From the NCBI GenBank assembly GCA_028687545.1, contig JAQTZZ010000010.1, positions 50,118-114,117 of the forward strand: a stretch of 64,000 nt of DNA, written 5' to 3'. Each line of letters opens with the position of its first letter. Positions within the stretch are counted from its first letter, which is position 1. The notes beneath the pieces were generated by a model. The model was not told where the DNA came from. It was given only the letters and a program-made list of their open reading frames with translations, and ran no database searches. Origin of the DNA: Candidatus Wallbacteria bacterium (GTDB lineage Bacteria > Muiribacteriota > JAQTZZ01). This document shows positions 6,157 to 9,422 of the stretch, piece after piece. A program made the position numbers and the translations under genes.

Positions 6157-6516
6157 ATGGAGGACAGTATGAAATATTTCCCCGAAGTAATCAGTCAATT
6201 GGCTCAGGCAGATGTCCCTCTTAAAGGCGTGTCCGCCCGTCTTTCCCAAGGAAATGGGCATCAGATCCTTTTCATGGAGTTCAGTGAGGATGCAGATCTG
6301 CCGGAGCACACTCATGAAAGCCAGTGGGGCGTCATCCTTGAAGGAAAATCAGACCTGGTCATCGACGGGGTGAAACATACCTTCTGCAAAGGAGACCGTT
6401 ACTTCATCCCCTGCGGTGTGAAGCATTCCGGTAAGATCTATGCCGGGTATGCTGATGTCACTTTTTTCAACCAGGCTGATCGGTATCTGGTAAAAAAATC
6501 ACTCAATAGCAGGTGA
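6157..6516 (+). CDS. Cupin domain protein (RmlC-like). This is the intact copy of a repeated gene.
   Basis: Cupin motifs PEHTHESQWGVILEG...GDRYFIPCGVKHSG. Fragments at about 90% identity recur at about 18105-18170 and 42088-42190. Confidence 0.75.
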   Translation: MEDSMKYFPEVISQLAQADVPLKGVSARLSQGNGHQILFMEFSEDADLPEHTHESQWGVILEGKSDLVIDGVKHTFCKGDRYFIPCGVKHSGKIYAGYADVTFFNQADRYLVKKSLNSR

Positions 6517-6526
6517 AGATGAGTAA

Positions 6527-6694
6527 AGACAAGAAAAAATTTGTAGTCTTCCTGGGTAATACTCACCAAGATGTCGAATCAATAGTGCGAAGCGATCCCT
6601 TTATCGTGAACAGGTATTACCAGTCATACGAGATACACGAACTGATTGAGGGCAATGAAAACAACAACTGGCTTTTGGAATGATCATCAGGCAG
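6527..6694 (+). pseudogene. YciI-like domain remnant, internally deleted
   Basis: Encodes MSKDKKKFVV...DVESIVRSDPFIVNRYYQSYEIHELIEGNENNNWLLE. This matches the C-terminal YciI-like domain of the GNAT-YciI gene at 8601-9422 but lacks about 40 central residues. Confidence 0.6.
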
Positions 6695-6756
6695 AGAACA
6701 TCTTTTGGTCAGCCTGGAAGTTTTCGCGGATCAATACGCATTGGAGCTGAATCAGT

Positions 6757-7587
6757 ATGCTGAACAAAATCCCTGAACTTCGTTTTGAAAGTCCGGTTGC
6801 GGTTCGTTCAACTTTCAGTATCGAGCTTAATGGAGAAAACTTGGAGATTGCGGCCCTGCATCGCAAGTCCGGAGAAAACCTCGTGTTTTTCCTCCACGGC
6901 CTGGGAGCTGTGAAAGAGTGTTTTGAAGAGGCATTCAGTTCCGGGTATCTTAGCGGATACTCGCTATTGTCATGTGACCTGCCCGGATTCGGAGAATCAA
7001 CTAAAAGCGGTACATTCAGTTACAGCATGGAGGATTTTGCTGAAGTTTCCAGGCTGCTGCTCAACAGGCAGGACTATGATTCCCTTCACATCGTCGGTCA
7101 CAGCATGGGCGGCGCAATAGGAATCATTCTCGCAGGCTTGCTCGATGGCAGGATGCGCTCTTTCGTTAATGCCGAAGGAAATCTCATTGGCGACGACTGC
7201 GGTTTGCTGAGCAGAGAGGCTACCAGATACACTCTTCCTGAGTTCGAGTCCCATGGATTCAGGAAAGTCCTGGCCGGTTGCTCAGGCATTGAAAATCAGG
7301 GTATGAAAAAATGGCTGGAGTGGAATCAGAATGCATATGTTCCCGGATTTTTCCACAGCGCCCGCTCCCTTATCGCATGGTCCAAAGGTGACATCCTGCT
7401 TGAGAGGTTCAAAGCAATGAAATTCCGCAAGCTGTTTGCCTATGGAAGTCACAACAGCGACCTGAAAGTGCTCGGTCTGCTTGACGGTATTGAAACAGCA
7501 CCTGTCCCTGGAAGCTCTCATGCCATGATGATCGACAATCCGGAAGGTTTTTACTGCCTGCTGGGAGGATTTATTGCTGAAAAATAG
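6757..7587 (+). CDS. Alpha/beta-fold hydrolase
   Basis: GHSMGG nucleophile elbow (GxSxG) and an LVFFLHGLG oxyanion region. Confidence 0.8.
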   Translation: MLNKIPELRFESPVAVRSTFSIELNGENLEIAALHRKSGENLVFFLHGLGAVKECFEEAFSSGYLSGYSLLSCDLPGFGESTKSGTFSYSMEDFAEVSRLLLNRQDYDSLHIVGHSMGGAIGIILAGLLDGRMRSFVNAEGNLIGDDCGLLSREATRYTLPEFESHGFRKVLAGCSGIENQGMKKWLEWNQNAYVPGFFHSARSLIAWSKGDILLERFKAMKFRKLFAYGSHNSDLKVLGLLDGIETAPVPGSSHAMMIDNPEGFYCLLGGFIAEK

Positions 7588-7617
7588 CTCAAAAGGCAGA
7601 AATTCAGGAAATCCTCC

Positions 7618-7709
7618 AAGTCCGGCAAAAAATGGCCCTTGAGCAAGTGGATTCAGGTAAACACAGTGGCACCATATAAAAAAGCCGCAGGTATGATAAA
7701 AAAAAATTA
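7618..7709 (+). pseudogene. 3'-remnant of a ClbS/DfsB (DUF1706) gene
   Basis: Translates SGKKWPLSKWIQVNTVAPYKKAAGMIKKN*. That matches the last 30 aa of the ClbS/DfsB protein at 36476-37063. The same gene order (ClbS then arginase-fold) occurs at 36476-37913. Confidence 0.6.
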
Positions 7710-7731
7710 GGGATCAAGTAAGGAGCAAGCG

Positions 7732-8574
7732 ATGAAATACATTTTGGGAATTCCTTCAGCCTGGGGATCATTTTTTAATGGACCTGAAGTGAGTCCTGCG
7801 GCGATCCGTGAAGCCGGACTTATCGATGCATTCAAATCAAGAGACGTGGTATTCGAGGATCTTGGTGATCTGCAACTGCTTCCCCTGATGTCCAGGCACA
7901 GTGTACCGCCCATCAGGCATTACCCGTCCCCCAGGATTGTCTGGGAATTGACCTTGAATGAGCTGGAACCTGTGATCAGGAAAAGTAAACGGGTTTTGCT
8001 GCTCGGCGGAGACTGCAGCATAGTAGTCGGCTCCATGACAGCCATGCACAATGTCTATGGAAATTCAGCTTATCTTCTCTATCTTGATGGACACATGGAC
8101 TGCGAGATTCCAGTGGCCGATAAATGTGCAGGTGCGGCTGGCTTCGGCCTCTATCTGCTCACAGAGCAGAATCCCTTCTGGCCTTCCCCGGCCATCACTG
8201 AACAGCAGCTGCTGATAGCGGGAGTGCATGTCATGCCGGCTAACTGCAAAAAGATTCTGCCTCACTTAAGCCTTGCAAAGATGCGCAAAACCGGTATCCG
8301 CGACTCTGCCTTGAAGATTCTCTCGGCAATCGGGGCAGACATGAAAATACTGGTACACCTGGACGTGGATGTAATGAATCAGGAGTCAATGCCTGCAGCT
8401 TATTCGCCCAGCGAAGAAGGGCTGACTCTTGATGAAATGCAGGAGCTACTGTCGGTTGTCATGCATGATCAGCGGGTGAAACTGCTGGAGATTACCGAAT
8501 TCGATCCGCTGAAAGATCCTGAAGGCAAATCAGGCGCAGATATAGTGAAGCTGCTCTCCGGTTTTTCGTGGTAG
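7732..8574 (+). CDS. Arginase/agmatinase (ureohydrolase)-fold protein, paralog 1
   Basis: Motifs DGHMD (DxHxD), GGDCS (GGDHS with His to Cys) and HLDVDVMNQ (DVDxxDP-like). About 90% identical to 37074-37913. Confidence 0.7.
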   Translation: MKYILGIPSAWGSFFNGPEVSPAAIREAGLIDAFKSRDVVFEDLGDLQLLPLMSRHSVPPIRHYPSPRIVWELTLNELEPVIRKSKRVLLLGGDCSIVVGSMTAMHNVYGNSAYLLYLDGHMDCEIPVADKCAGAAGFGLYLLTEQNPFWPSPAITEQQLLIAGVHVMPANCKKILPHLSLAKMRKTGIRDSALKILSAIGADMKILVHLDVDVMNQESMPAAYSPSEEGLTLDEMQELLSVVMHDQRVKLLEITEFDPLKDPEGKSGADIVKLLSGFSW

Positions 8575-8600
8575 ATTTTATTGTGAAGTAGGGAGGATAA

Positions 8601-9422
8601 ATGAGTAATCACAAAGCCGGCACGAATGACGGGATCGTGATCCGCAAAGCAATGCCTGGGGATGTTGAGGTTCTTACTTTTTTCAGGGTCGGTATGCTGA
8701 GTGAGGTTTTTACGGGGATGGAGGTTTCTGAAAACTTGGAGTTGAAAACTGTCATCAGAAAGTACTTTGAGGACAAGCTGGAAGGCAGTGATTTTTTTGG
8801 TCTGATTGCCGAGAAAGACGGGAGAGAAGTCGGAACAGGCGGGATGACCATTTCGATCGGCCCGCCCTCACCGGCCACCAAAAGCGGCAAGAAAGCATAC
8901 ATTTTCGGGATGTACGCCATCCCAAAAGAGCGCTGCCACGGCATCGGAAGCAGAATTTTTCAGTGTCTGGTGGACGAAGCTGAAACGCGGGGAATAGAAT
9001 ACATACACCTTCACGCGGCACCTGACGGCCTCAATGTTTATCTGAAAAAAGGCTTCCATGACCCGCACAACAAGGAACTGGTGCTTTTGCTGAAAGGTTC
9101 CTCTCGGCAAAAGCCGGAGCAGAAGCAGCCGGAGAACAAATTTGTAGTCATCCTGAAAGAGAAAAAGACTGGCACTCTGCAGAGACCTCTTCTGGAATCA
9201 CATGTGGAACATCTCAAAAACCTGCATCTGAAAAACCTGCTTTTCCTCTGCGGCCCTTTGAAAGACAGTGAATCAGCCTTATTGATCATCAGAGCAGAAA
9301 AGATGGAAGATGTAGAATCAATTGTGCGGAGTGACCCTTTTATTATCAACCAGTATTACCGATCGTTCGAGATACATGAGCTGATCGAAGGCAATGAAAG
9401 TAACAACTGGCTTTTGGAGTGA
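8601..9422 (+). CDS. GNAT N-acetyltransferase fused to a C-terminal YciI-like domain
   Basis: GNAT motif A (RCHGIGSRIF...YLKKGF) in residues 1-160. A PEQKQPEN linker is followed by a YciI-like module (KFVVILKEKK...DVESIVRSDPFIINQYYRSFEIHEL). Confidence 0.7.
   Translation: MSNHKAGTNDGIVIRKAMPGDVEVLTFFRVGMLSEVFTGMEVSENLELKTVIRKYFEDKLEGSDFFGLIAEKDGREVGTGGMTISIGPPSPATKSGKKAYIFGMYAIPKERCHGIGSRIFQCLVDEAETRGIEYIHLHAAPDGLNVYLKKGFHDPHNKELVLLLKGSSRQKPEQKQPENKFVVILKEKKTGTLQRPLLESHVEHLKNLHLKNLLFLCGPLKDSESALLIIRAEKMEDVESIVRSDPFIINQYYRSFEIHELIEGNESNNWLLE

Follow-up and report, generated by a model that had tools for sequence, protein, structure and literature searches.

Small stress-type genes recur at four or more loci of the 64,000-nt stretch of DNA analysed here (the window), some copies being intact and others diverged paralogues or remnants left by deletion. 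This recurrence had been proposed in a first-pass annotation, and a blastn comparison of the window with itself returned every repeat listed there. The gene identities proposed earlier also agreed with Pfam, which recognised Cupin_2, GNAT with YCII, DUF1706 (ClbS), Arginase fold, DUF3795, TfoX_N, Glyoxalase/VOC and alpha/beta hydrolase genes, as well as two toxin-antitoxin pairs, a ParE/RelE toxin with an RHH antitoxin and a Fic/Doc toxin with a MazE-type antitoxin. Locus 1 (about 6-9.5 kb) contains the following features:

6157..6516 (+), intact cupin gene, 119 aa (Pfam Cupin_2, E=4e-8)
6519..6694 (+), YciI-domain remnant ORF, 58 aa, with an internal deletion, immediately 3' of the cupin stop
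6757..7587 (+), alpha/beta hydrolase gene, single copy (Pfam Abhydrolase_1, E=7e-17)
7617..7713 (+), ClbS/DUF1706 3' tail, last ~32 codons, upstream of arginase-fold copy 1 and within a 941-bp repeat
7732..8574 (+), arginase-fold gene, copy 1 (Pfam Arginase, E=4e-25)
8538..8579 (+), 3' half copy of a promoter/operator-like motif, cut by the arginase-fold junction (nhmmer E=0.002 against the motif profile)
8601..9422 (+), intact GNAT-YciI fusion gene, 273 aa (Pfam Acetyltransf_1 and YCII)

Beside this locus lies the gene of a STAND-TPR protein whose C-terminus gives a Trans_reg_C-like match. Locus 2 (about 16.3-19.1 kb) and the sequence preceding it are composed as follows, E-values for full motif copies being those obtained when the copy was left out of the profile:

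13396..13457 (+), promoter/operator-like motif 5' of a TldD/PmbA pair at 13514-16221 (E=4.5e-10)
16335..16871 (+), a different GNAT gene (Pfam Acetyltransf_4) occupying the former GNAT-YciI site, with a YciI tail 6 nt on
16878..16911 (+), YciI tail, 34 nt, the last 11 codons and stop (94% to 9388-9422)
16926..17231 (-), DUF3795 gene, locus-2 copy (Pfam DUF3795)
17232..17356 (-), TfoX C-terminal remnant aligning with 35967-36091 (pS 0.34, pN 0.11)
17387..17893 (-), VOC/glyoxalase gene (Pfam Glyoxalase) in place of TfoX codons ~12-78
17987..18050 (+), first locus-2 promoter/operator-like motif (E=2.8e-14)
18080..18160 (+), cupin stump, ribosome-binding region and first ~19 codons (91% to 6170-6215)
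18202..18691 (-), ParE/RelE-family toxin (ParE_toxin, E=3e-12) and RHH antitoxin (RHH_1, E=5e-6)
18733..18794 (+), second locus-2 promoter/operator-like motif (E=8e-9)
18818..19106 (+), GNAT-YciI pseudogene aligned to 8601-9321, with an in-frame 432-nt internal deletion

The remaining features lie at 29 kb and between 33 and 42.2 kb (loci 3 and 4):

29070..29111 (-), TfoX fragment, 42 nt (86-88% to 17315-17356 and 36050-36092)
33134..33346 (+), STAND NTPase paralogue, N-terminal fragment (in tblastx, 49-52% identical in aa to 9947-10102 and 54915-55079)
33348..33393 (-), VOC gene tail, 46 nt (96% to 17400-17445)
35652..36330 (-), intact DUF3795 and TfoX_N genes, locus 3 (Pfam)
36405..36468 (+), promoter/operator-like motif 5' of ClbS (E=1.4e-14)
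36476..37913 (+), intact ClbS/DUF1706 gene (E=1e-31) and arginase-fold copy 2 (Arginase, E=2e-26)
38103..38719 (+), MazE-type antitoxin (MazE_antitoxin, a weak E=0.008) and Doc (Fic/DOC) toxin (Fic, E=4e-19)
40419..40481 (+), promoter/operator-like motif 5' of an uncharacterised 320-aa gene and a YdeI/OmdA gene, which together span 40520-42064 (OmdA Pfam match; motif E=8e-12)
42096..42186 (+), cupin mid-gene fragment, codons ~53-83 (92% to 6315-6405; pS 0.28, pN 0.03)

The self-blastn matches, all in direct orientation and with E-values from 1e-6 to 0, were:

6170-6215 and 18115-18160, 91%
6315-6405 and 42096-42186, 92%
6568-6690 and 9307-9431, 81%
7617-8556 and 36958-37898, 89%, at 941 bp the longest
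8558-8699 and 18774-18916, and 9128-9321 and 18913-19106, 89% each, separated by the internal deletion
9388-9422 and 16878-16911, 94%
16933-17356 and 35668-36091, 82%
17875-18052 and 36294-36470, 84%
17315-17356, 29070-29111 and 36050-36092, a TfoX piece, new to this analysis
17400-17445 and 33348-33393, VOC tail, 96%, likewise new
18716-18795 and 40403-40481, intergenic, 78%, likewise new

The high similarity of the fragments reported before was therefore reproduced, but not as a uniform 90-95%, the measured range being 78-96%. The deleted GNAT-YciI copy is also real and reaches 19106 rather than 19090. A TfoX/VOC module had been assigned to both the 17 kb and the 36 kb locus; VOC is present in the 17 kb copy only, in place of the central part of TfoX, and TfoX is intact at 36 kb. 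In total, there are about 12 short remnants in 40 kb, which is many for a bacterial genome when bacteria generally, not its own lineage, serve as the yardstick.

The alignments show how the individual copies were altered. The cupin gene at 6157..6516 is the source-like copy for both cupin fragments, and in the stump the start ATG has become GTG, with tblastx lengthening the match to 6135/18080. In the YciI remnant of locus 1 the domain start is joined to the tail, with about 140 nt gone. The GNAT-YciI pseudogene carries a premature stop at a codon that is L in the intact copy, and its 3' end is missing from where a convergent GH26 gene ends. In the minus-strand alignment of loci 2 and 3, homology runs through the start codon, is interrupted by the VOC body and then resumes; the VOC gene employs the TfoX ribosome-binding site and ATG, and MASGK is common to both. 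Homology of arginase-fold copy 1 with copy 2 stops at 8556 and homology with the locus-2 promoter begins at 8558, so that its last ~5 codons come from a promoter motif fused to the gene; the half motif aligns to 18774-18800. The ParE/RelE and RHH pair is situated between the cupin stump and the second motif of locus 2, and the TfoX fragment at 29 kb lies in a 1.1-kb non-coding stretch together with an FMN_red stump (28673-28807; N-terminal 44 aa, Pfam E=3e-5).

As the source is a MAG, and exact 31-50-mers inside the repeats could mislead an assembler, the fragments might be products of a short-read metagenome assembly in which sequences were joined chimerically or repeats wrongly resolved. We consider this most improbable. 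Logan contigs (k=31 unitigs/contigs of run SRR22315507, made with a different assembler) match 6345-7767, 13212-18952 and 29670-37109 at 99.98-100% with 0-1 mismatches, cross the remnant junctions in these stretches, and break at exact shared 31-38-mers only; one of them (L006) contains the alpha/beta hydrolase gene with the remnants on both sides. This run is very probably the source of the MAG itself, so the second assembly is not fully independent. Moreover, the fragments are 81-96%, not 100%, identical to the intact copies and thus are not misplaced pieces of them, and the junctions yield intact in-frame ORFs (VOC on the TfoX start; the in-frame deletion).

Most breakpoints fall at arbitrary sites within ORFs: at codons ~20, ~53 and ~83 of the cupin gene, codon 161 of ClbS, codon 275 of the arginase-fold gene, 11 codons ahead of the YciI stop, and codons ~12 and ~78 of TfoX. 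The deletion of 8700-9130, the sole one for which both parental sequences are readable, is in-frame and shows 1-2 nt of microhomology. The earlier claim that recombination generated the copies and remnants is supported, and the junctions look like illegitimate recombination, as in the 432-nt deletion, the VOC body within TfoX, the arginase-fold gene that runs into a promoter, and the toxin-antitoxin pairs beside breakpoints. The order of modules also differs between loci, with cupin before ClbS-arginase in locus 1 and after it in locus 3/4, which takes several events rather than the duplication of one block and later losses.

The loci resemble sedentary integrons and CALIN in their clustered small accessory genes (acetyltransferases, VOC/glyoxalase, cupin, toxin-antitoxin), duplicated cassettes and one inverted toxin-antitoxin pair (the ParE pair, relative to its neighbours). 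GNAT, VOC and cupin genes are the usual cargo of chromosomal integron arrays, and integron cassettes are promoterless. Toxin-antitoxin cassettes are documented in such arrays as well (PMC13108822). The integron likeness suggested at first pass holds for gene types, but not for the mechanism. Its report of mixed gene orientation and of no attC, integrase or transposase in the window was confirmed: no recombinase ORF was present in the window, nor in 2.9 kb and 3.6 kb of additional flank, a structural attC scan gave 0 attC-like R''/R' pairs versus 0.1-1.9 in shuffles, the window has no notable short-range inverted repeats, and its spacers, just 2-62 bp long in locus 1, form no hairpins (folding z from -1.3 to +1.6). 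The genes carry their own promoter-like motifs, and a CALIN by definition has, on one strand, at least two attC sites separated by less than 4 kb (Cury et al. 2016, PMC4889954). An integron as the mechanism was rejected on attC, spacer folding, recombinase, orientation and breakpoint position. Although ~54 kb of the source contig and the rest of the MAG lie outside the searched sequence, a degenerate sedentary integron, CALIN or other site-specific cassette system, with sites too diverged and a recombinase outside the window, is very improbable.

The recombination had been called recent, which the synonymous divergence between copies (pS 0.28-0.49) contradicts. The two arginase-fold copies share 89% aa identity with dS 0.36 and dN/dS 0.17, and the DUF3795 gene of locus 2 is 75% identical (aa) to 35652-35966 with dS 0.79 and dN/dS 0.20; at dN/dS of 0.17-0.20 the intact paralogue pairs are under purifying selection. 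Remnants show pS of 0.28-0.34 but pN of only 0.03-0.11 (ClbS tail, 0.31 and 0.07), and six of them pooled give pS of about 0.26 versus pN of about 0.08 (pN/pS about 0.29). The GNAT 5' stretch is an outlier, with 10 non-synonymous versus 1 synonymous change, which are small numbers. The purifying-selection signature of the remnants indicates that most of the divergence accumulated while the copies were functional, before they were truncated. That pS is similar for the different locus pairs fits duplication in one or a few episodes; the YciI remnant of locus 1, with pS 0.73, is an old paralogue. The same similarity (about 0.28-0.34 for most pairs), the selection signature retained in fragments and the GC of the repeat loci (0.41-0.49, below 0.50-0.56 in the surroundings) could also be expected if copies and fragments had entered from a sister lineage diverged by ~10%, through horizontal transfer or homeologous recombination, and had partly overwritten residents. 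This we find improbable, as the copies occupy differing contexts instead of allelic positions, the only arginase-fold relatives above 44% identity in a protein search were the two copies on this contig, and GNAT-YciI (8601..9422) matched only itself in a word-indexed protein search. No close sequenced relative of this Candidatus Wallbacteria MAG was found, and the nearest homologue of a housekeeping protein (PtsI) is just 60-70% identical.

A new item of this analysis is a promoter-like motif of about 65 nt common to five modules, with five full copies and the half copy in the window, on the plus strand only. Full copies are mutually 75-84% identical, lie 24-64 nt 5' of a plus-strand ORF start, and were each regained in a leave-one-out profile search (E=8e-9 to 3e-14). 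They contain TGnTACAAT with CTGAGA 17 nt upstream (in a sigma-70 scan of 17987..18050, CTGAGA-17-TACAAT with TG upstream), and three imperfect GA(T/G)G(C/T)G repeats at 10 bp spacing, the last of which overlaps the weak -35 and is followed by the extended -10. No RNA structure was found in the motif, and it was absent from all other genomes scanned. Read from sequence only, it resembles PhoB pho boxes and SARP/OmpR-family sites in its helically phased direct repeats, the last over a weak -35, and its extended -10, and may act as both promoter and operator; its presence on five modules suggests a lineage-specific, co-regulated stress or xenobiotic-response set. As in those systems, a putative regulator is encoded nearby, and the STAND-TPR protein beside locus 1 is a candidate motif-binding protein, but its OmpR-type winged-helix match is weak (24.7 bits versus a Pfam gathering score of 26.2), and the near-palindrome AACCGG(A/T)T in the motif spacer could alternatively be a repressor site.

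Some breakpoints are not arbitrary and leave room for motif-anchored exchange, in which the motif and conserved gene ends would act as portable homology through which homologous recombination or gene conversion swaps cargo ORFs. Loci 2 and 3 both have DUF3795-TfoX-promoter, their homology ends 2-4 nt past the -10 element (18052/36470), and the cargo beyond it is the cupin stump in one and ClbS-arginase in the other; 18716-18795 and 40403-40481 have the motif alone in common, with unrelated flanking genes; the arginase-fold segment is joined within a motif copy (8556/8558); and the VOC gene begins precisely at the start codon of TfoX. Such exchange would do the work of an integron platform without a recombinase, with cargo under a stress-responsive promoter. 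It is nevertheless unlikely, if slightly less so than import from a sister lineage, since only 3-4 junctions are concerned, most breakpoints lie away from the motif, 75-84% identity over about 65 nt is a poor RecA-type substrate, and functional constraint on a promoter/operator suffices for a sharply bounded conserved block.

Our preferred reading, to which we give a probability of about 0.6, is that paralogues in an accessory region have turned over and decayed in the ordinary way. Three or four low-GC accessory patches close to one another (about 6-9.5, 16.3-19.1 and 33-42.2 kb) would hold paralogous small-gene modules (cupin; GNAT-YciI; ClbS and arginase-fold; DUF3795 and TfoX) that were copied within the neighbourhood long ago and diverged mostly while functional. 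Later erosion and reshuffling would have occurred by illegitimate recombination, neither site-specific nor reliant on a dedicated recombinase, through deletions within genes, substitution of one ORF for another in an existing expression slot, and the joining of a gene end into a promoter, leaving toxin-antitoxin pairs adjoining breakpoints, and short tails and stumps as probable pseudogene scars. This order of events is one that we infer. Co-regulation of the motif-bearing set would explain why the promoter, ribosome-binding site and start codon of the resident are retained where one ORF has replaced another.

Among known systems, segmental duplication with differential loss shares the diverged direct copies, paralogues that are truncated or have lost an internal part, a premature stop, a signature of purifying selection predating truncation, and 1-2 nt microhomology at the resolvable deletion, but the window is unusually dense in very short scars (34-125 nt) and its non-collinear modules need several independent events. 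In Rhs/CdiA polymorphic toxin loci, displaced 3' gene ends accumulate after replacement. The window is like their orphan-module arrays in that an incoming gene displaces the resident and leaves the 3' tail directly downstream (YciI after GNAT, TfoX after VOC, and VOC after an S41 peptidase gene), and unlike them in having no large conserved core gene, toxin/immunity logic or shared recombination-prone core/tip boundary. Of note, gene stumps that have no paralogue in the window (an FMN_red N-terminus, a STAND N-terminus and a sulfatase-like half) indicate that gene decay is general across it.

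Alignment of the window with itself by blastn recovered all recurrences of small stress-type genes listed in the first-pass annotation, at 78-96% identity, a wider range than the 90-95% claimed there, and with E-values of 1e-6 to 0. The matches lie in locus 1 (~6-9.5 kb), locus 2 (~16.3-19.1 kb), locus 3 (~33-38 kb) and at scattered sites, and include three that were absent from that annotation.

Repeat matches in the window (blastn, window against itself)
18115-18160: cupin piece, 91% to the intact cupin gene 6157-6516
42096-42186: cupin piece, 92% to the intact cupin gene 6157-6516
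6568-6690 and 9307-9431: YciI tail, 81%
16878-16911: YciI tail, 34 nt, 94%
7617-8556 and 36958-37898: ClbS tail plus arginase-fold block, 941 bp, 89%
8558-8699 and 18774-18916, 9128-9321 and 18913-19106: GNAT-YciI, match in two parts, both 89%
16933-17356 and 35668-36091 (82%), 17875-18052 and 36294-36470 (84%): DUF3795/TfoX block
29070-29111: TfoX piece, 42 nt, newly listed
33348-33393: VOC tail, 46 nt, 96%, newly listed
18716-18795 and 40403-40481: intergenic match, 78%, newly listed

Every match listed runs in direct orientation, and the only inverted long-range matches found by self-BLAST in the window were between two STAND paralogues. The assignments of the genes, among them the ParE/RHH and Doc/antitoxin pairs, were confirmed by Pfam, and searches with PADLOC and NCBIfam added context only. 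Similarity far above chance links the intact genes to copies elsewhere in the genome that are truncated or disrupted, and marks them as paralogous duplicates. The repeated modules occupy three or four patches of lower GC content (0.41-0.49), set between higher-GC genes for peptidases, glycoside hydrolases, homocysteine/aspartate metabolism and a cell-wall amidase.

An assembly artefact was examined using Logan assemblies of run SRR22315507, which were made with a different assembler at k=31; as these reads and the MAG very probably share a sample, the independence of the two assemblies is partial. Logan contigs match window positions 6345-7767 and 29670-37109 at 100% and 13212-18952 with 1 mismatch, and two further contigs cover 1-6369 with 2.9 kb of left flank and 56381-64000 with 3.6 kb of right flank. 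The junctions are reproduced at 99.98-100% identity by three contigs (L005, L006 and L007), and the contigs cross the cupin/YciI-remnant/hydrolase/ClbS-tail junctions, the whole of locus 2 as far as its deletion junction, and the locus 3 remnants. Contigs end inside exact runs of 31-38 nt common to paralogous pieces (6340-6374; 7738-7775 / 37080-37117; 13211-13241; 18923-18954), which is the behaviour of true diverged repeats in a k=31 graph. Moreover, identity between remnants and intact copies is 81-96% and not 100%, and the remnants therefore are not misplaced pieces of them. The junctions, present in this second assembly, are very probably real and not assembly artefacts. L005 differs from the window by a single nucleotide in 5741 bp, which may be polymorphic in the population or may reflect a difference in consensus.

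Mapping of the homology breakpoints placed most of them at arbitrary positions within ORFs, with no common intergenic site. In the alignment, the GNAT-YciI pseudogene at 18818-19106 retains the whole upstream region and the first 33 codons, followed by an in-frame deletion of ~432 nt with 1-2 nt of microhomology and then a premature stop, and its 3' cut-off coincides with the end of the convergent GH26 gene. A YciI remnant at 6519-6694 forms a 58-codon ORF with an internal deletion, 2 nt past the cupin stop. In locus 2, a VOC gene (17387-17893, minus strand) stands in for TfoX codons ~12-78; its ribosome-binding site, ATG and first five codons (MASGK) are those of TfoX, whose C-terminal 40-odd codons come after the VOC stop. 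The homology of arginase-fold copy 1 (7732-8574) to copy 2 ends at 8556, five codons before the stop, and from 8558 the gene runs on into the 3' half of a ~65-nt motif, described below, that precedes GNAT-YciI. The cupin stumps comprise codons 1-19 in locus 2 and codons ~53-83 at 42.1 kb. Other stumps have no intact paralogue in the window, indicating that gene decay is general in this region and extends beyond the cassette-like genes. These are a 44-codon N-terminal stump of FMN_red (28673-28807), an ORF of 230 aa (25292-25984) that matches only the C-terminal part of sulfatase and phosphodiesterase profiles and is probably a truncated sulfatase-type gene, and a STAND NTPase N-terminus (33134-33346, plus strand) that was listed with them. 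The FMN_red stump and the TfoX piece at 29070-29111 lie, together with other short ORF debris, in a 1.1-kb non-coding gene graveyard at 28373-29516.

The first-pass annotation had likened these loci to the cargo of sedentary integrons, while noting that no integrase, transposase or attC site was visible. [quoted passage not shown] We took attC sites to be imperfect palindromes of about 60-150 nt with R''/L''-L'/R' boxes, and scanned for RYYYAAC and GTTRRRY placed 40-150 nt apart with complementary inner arms. This pattern-plus-complementarity scan gave 0 candidates in the window at all 3-4 stringencies, versus 0.1-1.9 in shuffled sequences. Short-range inverted repeats were unremarkable, no terminal inverted repeats were found around the modules, and ten intergenic spacers folded no better than shuffles (z of -1.3 to +1.6), the spacers of locus 1 measuring only 2-62 bp. 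No recombinase or transposase family was present among the Pfam-scanned ORFs of the window, all large ones included, and none among the genes called in the 2.9 kb left and 3.6 kb right flanks on the Logan contigs, so the earlier observation holds; in particular, no intI (tyrosine recombinase) lies beside the array in the window and the 6.5 kb of recovered flank. The genes are also not promoterless, co-oriented cassettes joined between genes: their orientation is mixed, they include five promoter-like motifs, and their breakpoints are mostly within ORFs. The attC scans, inverted repeats, spacer folding and Pfam results on the main ORFs thus place these loci, within the window and the flank covered, outside the published definitions of integron and CALIN (PMC4889954). 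Insertion sequences, transposons and MITEs fit no better, with no transposase family and no terminal inverted repeats at the modules. Known RNA elements and tRNA integration sites were ruled out as well, since no Rfam match reached the gathering score in the window and neither tRNA nor tmRNA genes were found.

The recombination had been described as recent, yet synonymous divergence and the pooled pN/pS indicate that the duplications are old. The arginase-fold copies differ with a dS of 0.36 and a dN/dS of 0.17, and the DUF3795 copies with a dS of 0.79 and a dN/dS of 0.20. When read in the frame of the intact gene, and with the GNAT 5' stretch excluded, the remnants gave a pS of 0.28-0.34 and a pN of 0.03-0.11, estimates based on 16-63 codons per fragment. 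The first 33 codons of GNAT carry 10 non-synonymous changes versus 1 synonymous change. For all six remnants pooled, pS was ~0.26 and pN ~0.08 (ratio ~0.29), and since a pN of ~0.17 would be expected had the remnants been dead since duplication, most divergence arose while both copies worked, before the truncations. As pS is similar from one locus pair to the next, one or a few duplication episodes would fit, the samples being small.

The intergenic matches in the self-comparison led to a motif of ~65 nt, of which five full copies and one half copy were found.

Copies of the ~65-nt motif
13396-13457, plus strand: full copy, upstream of TldD/PmbA
17987-18050, plus strand: full copy, upstream of the cupin stump
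18733-18794, plus strand: full copy, upstream of the GNAT-YciI pseudogene
36405-36468, plus strand: full copy, upstream of ClbS and arginase-fold
40419-40481, plus strand: full copy, upstream of an unknown gene and YdeI
8538-8579: half copy

Each of the five full copies was found by a profile of the other four (E = 8e-9 to 3e-14), and all five end 24-64 nt ahead of an ORF start on the plus strand. The alignment reveals three imperfect GA(T/G)G(C/T)G repeats with 10-bp spacing, an invariant GCTG, an invariant AACC followed by an invariant G (four of the five copies read AACCGG here, within a near-palindrome), and a TGnTA(C/G)A(A/T)T element. In a consensus scan, two copies read CTGAGA-17-TACAAT with TG upstream; hexamers, which were scanned at these two copies, as well as spacing, orientation and distance to the start codon correspond to a sigma-70-type sequence. 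ECF-sigma, sigma-54 and Bacteroidetes-type promoters were discarded by eye, as their spacings do not fit. An RNA structure was dropped in favour of a promoter/operator at the DNA level, since RNAalifold found no conserved fold (-0.72 kcal/mol) and no covariation. We read the motif as a common predicted promoter and regulator site; on this reading, the genes behind it would be a co-regulated set specific to the lineage, a candidate regulon of TldD/PmbA, cupin, GNAT-YciI, ClbS and arginase-fold, and the unknown gene with YdeI. Winged-helix activators of the OmpR/PhoB type typically use direct repeats that are helically phased and adjoin a weak -35. The product of the locus 1 neighbour at 9578-12217 is a STAND ATPase-TPR protein whose C-terminal match to Trans_reg_C, at 24.7 bits, falls below the gathering score of 26.2 bits; this protein and the divergently transcribed TfoX_N protein might be considered as candidate regulators. 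The motif was not found in collections of one genome per species or of JGI metagenomes, which returned 2 and 1 pattern matches at chance level; two of the three were inspected and lack the -10 half, at chance expectation, and the third was taken as chance too. The motif would be a new, lineage-restricted example of ordinary promoter/operator sites.

The best-supported account of these loci is paralogue turnover through ordinary illegitimate recombination. Small stress-type modules would have been duplicated within the neighbourhood and kept for a long time, after which differential deletion, overwriting by other small genes, or coming to adjoin toxin-antitoxin pairs would have left the scars. 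A single block duplication followed by fractionation does not suffice as a complete account, as module order is not collinear between loci. Surviving genes tend to have a working expression context, be it a resident promoter, a resident start codon or a place behind an expressed gene, and the simplest explanation is that selection decides which rearrangements last. In an improbable alternative, the motif would itself serve, along with conserved gene ends, as a homology anchor for recombinase-free swapping of ORFs into a few stress-inducible expression slots, whereby promoter, ribosome-binding site, start codon and resident 3' tail are kept and the body is replaced. The sharp loss of homology between loci 2 and 3, 2-4 nt past the -10 element, and the fact that the sites at 18.7 and 40.4 kb share the motif only, are compatible with such exchange, but are equally explained by functional constraint on the promoter. 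If true, it would be a functional analogue of the integron platform in a candidate phylum. Under paralogue turnover, the loci form a small natural record of accessory-gene turnover in an uncultured phylum, with slot replacement, lasting scars and divergence older than decay.

Among known categories, the loci come closest to segmental duplication followed by differential loss and decay into pseudogenes within an accessory region. Sedentary integron arrays are alike in cargo only, and all their testable defining structural features are absent here; the orphan modules of polymorphic toxin loci share the pattern of a tail after a new gene, but these loci have no core gene. They are an assembly-verified case of integron-like cargo (GNAT, VOC, cupin, ClbS, toxin-antitoxin pairs) recurring without integron machinery, and illustrate that cargo type and cassette-like recurrence alone are no evidence for an integron or recent mobility. 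They alter no open question.

No close relatives were present in the searched collections. The arginase-fold protein has a 90% identical paralogue on the same contig, its next relative is 44% identical, and it gave no match in a scan of the contigs of a genome collection. The nearest housekeeping homologue (PtsI) is 60-70% identical. A word-indexed search of 5.8 billion proteins found only the GNAT-YciI fusion (8601-9422) itself, both domains of which are recognised by Pfam. Exact-protein look-ups gave no match for the GH57 gene, YdeI and both arginase-fold copies, the last because the Logan contigs break inside both.

Several other features of the window were recorded. A 194-aa ORF without a family (37952-38536, minus strand) overlaps an antitoxin gene on the opposite strand and is probably not a real gene. 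A 334-aa ORF without family assignment (12294-13298) contains a 315-nt tandem repeat (12702-13283; 1.8 copies, 87% identity), directly upstream of a motif copy and the TldD/PmbA pair. At 29329-29520, a leader of ~160 nt separates a perfect sigma-70 consensus (TTGACA-16-TATAAT) from the HcyBio homocysteine-synthesis gene downstream; it is more stably folded than shuffled sequence (z = -2.0), gave nothing in Rfam even at E<=1, and may be an undescribed Met/SAM-type leader. The two STAND NTPase-TPR paralogues (9578-12217, plus strand; 52302-55478, minus strand) are ~48% identical with different C-terminal effectors, one with a weak OmpR-type winged-helix match and the other with a Ser/Thr kinase matching PADLOC PD-T4-6 kinase models, and the third copy is the N-terminal fragment at 33134-33346. 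Finally, an AAA_14/DUF4143 ATPase (22132-23295, minus strand) matches the PADLOC candidate defence family PDC-S01, adding to the accessory and defence flavour of the region.
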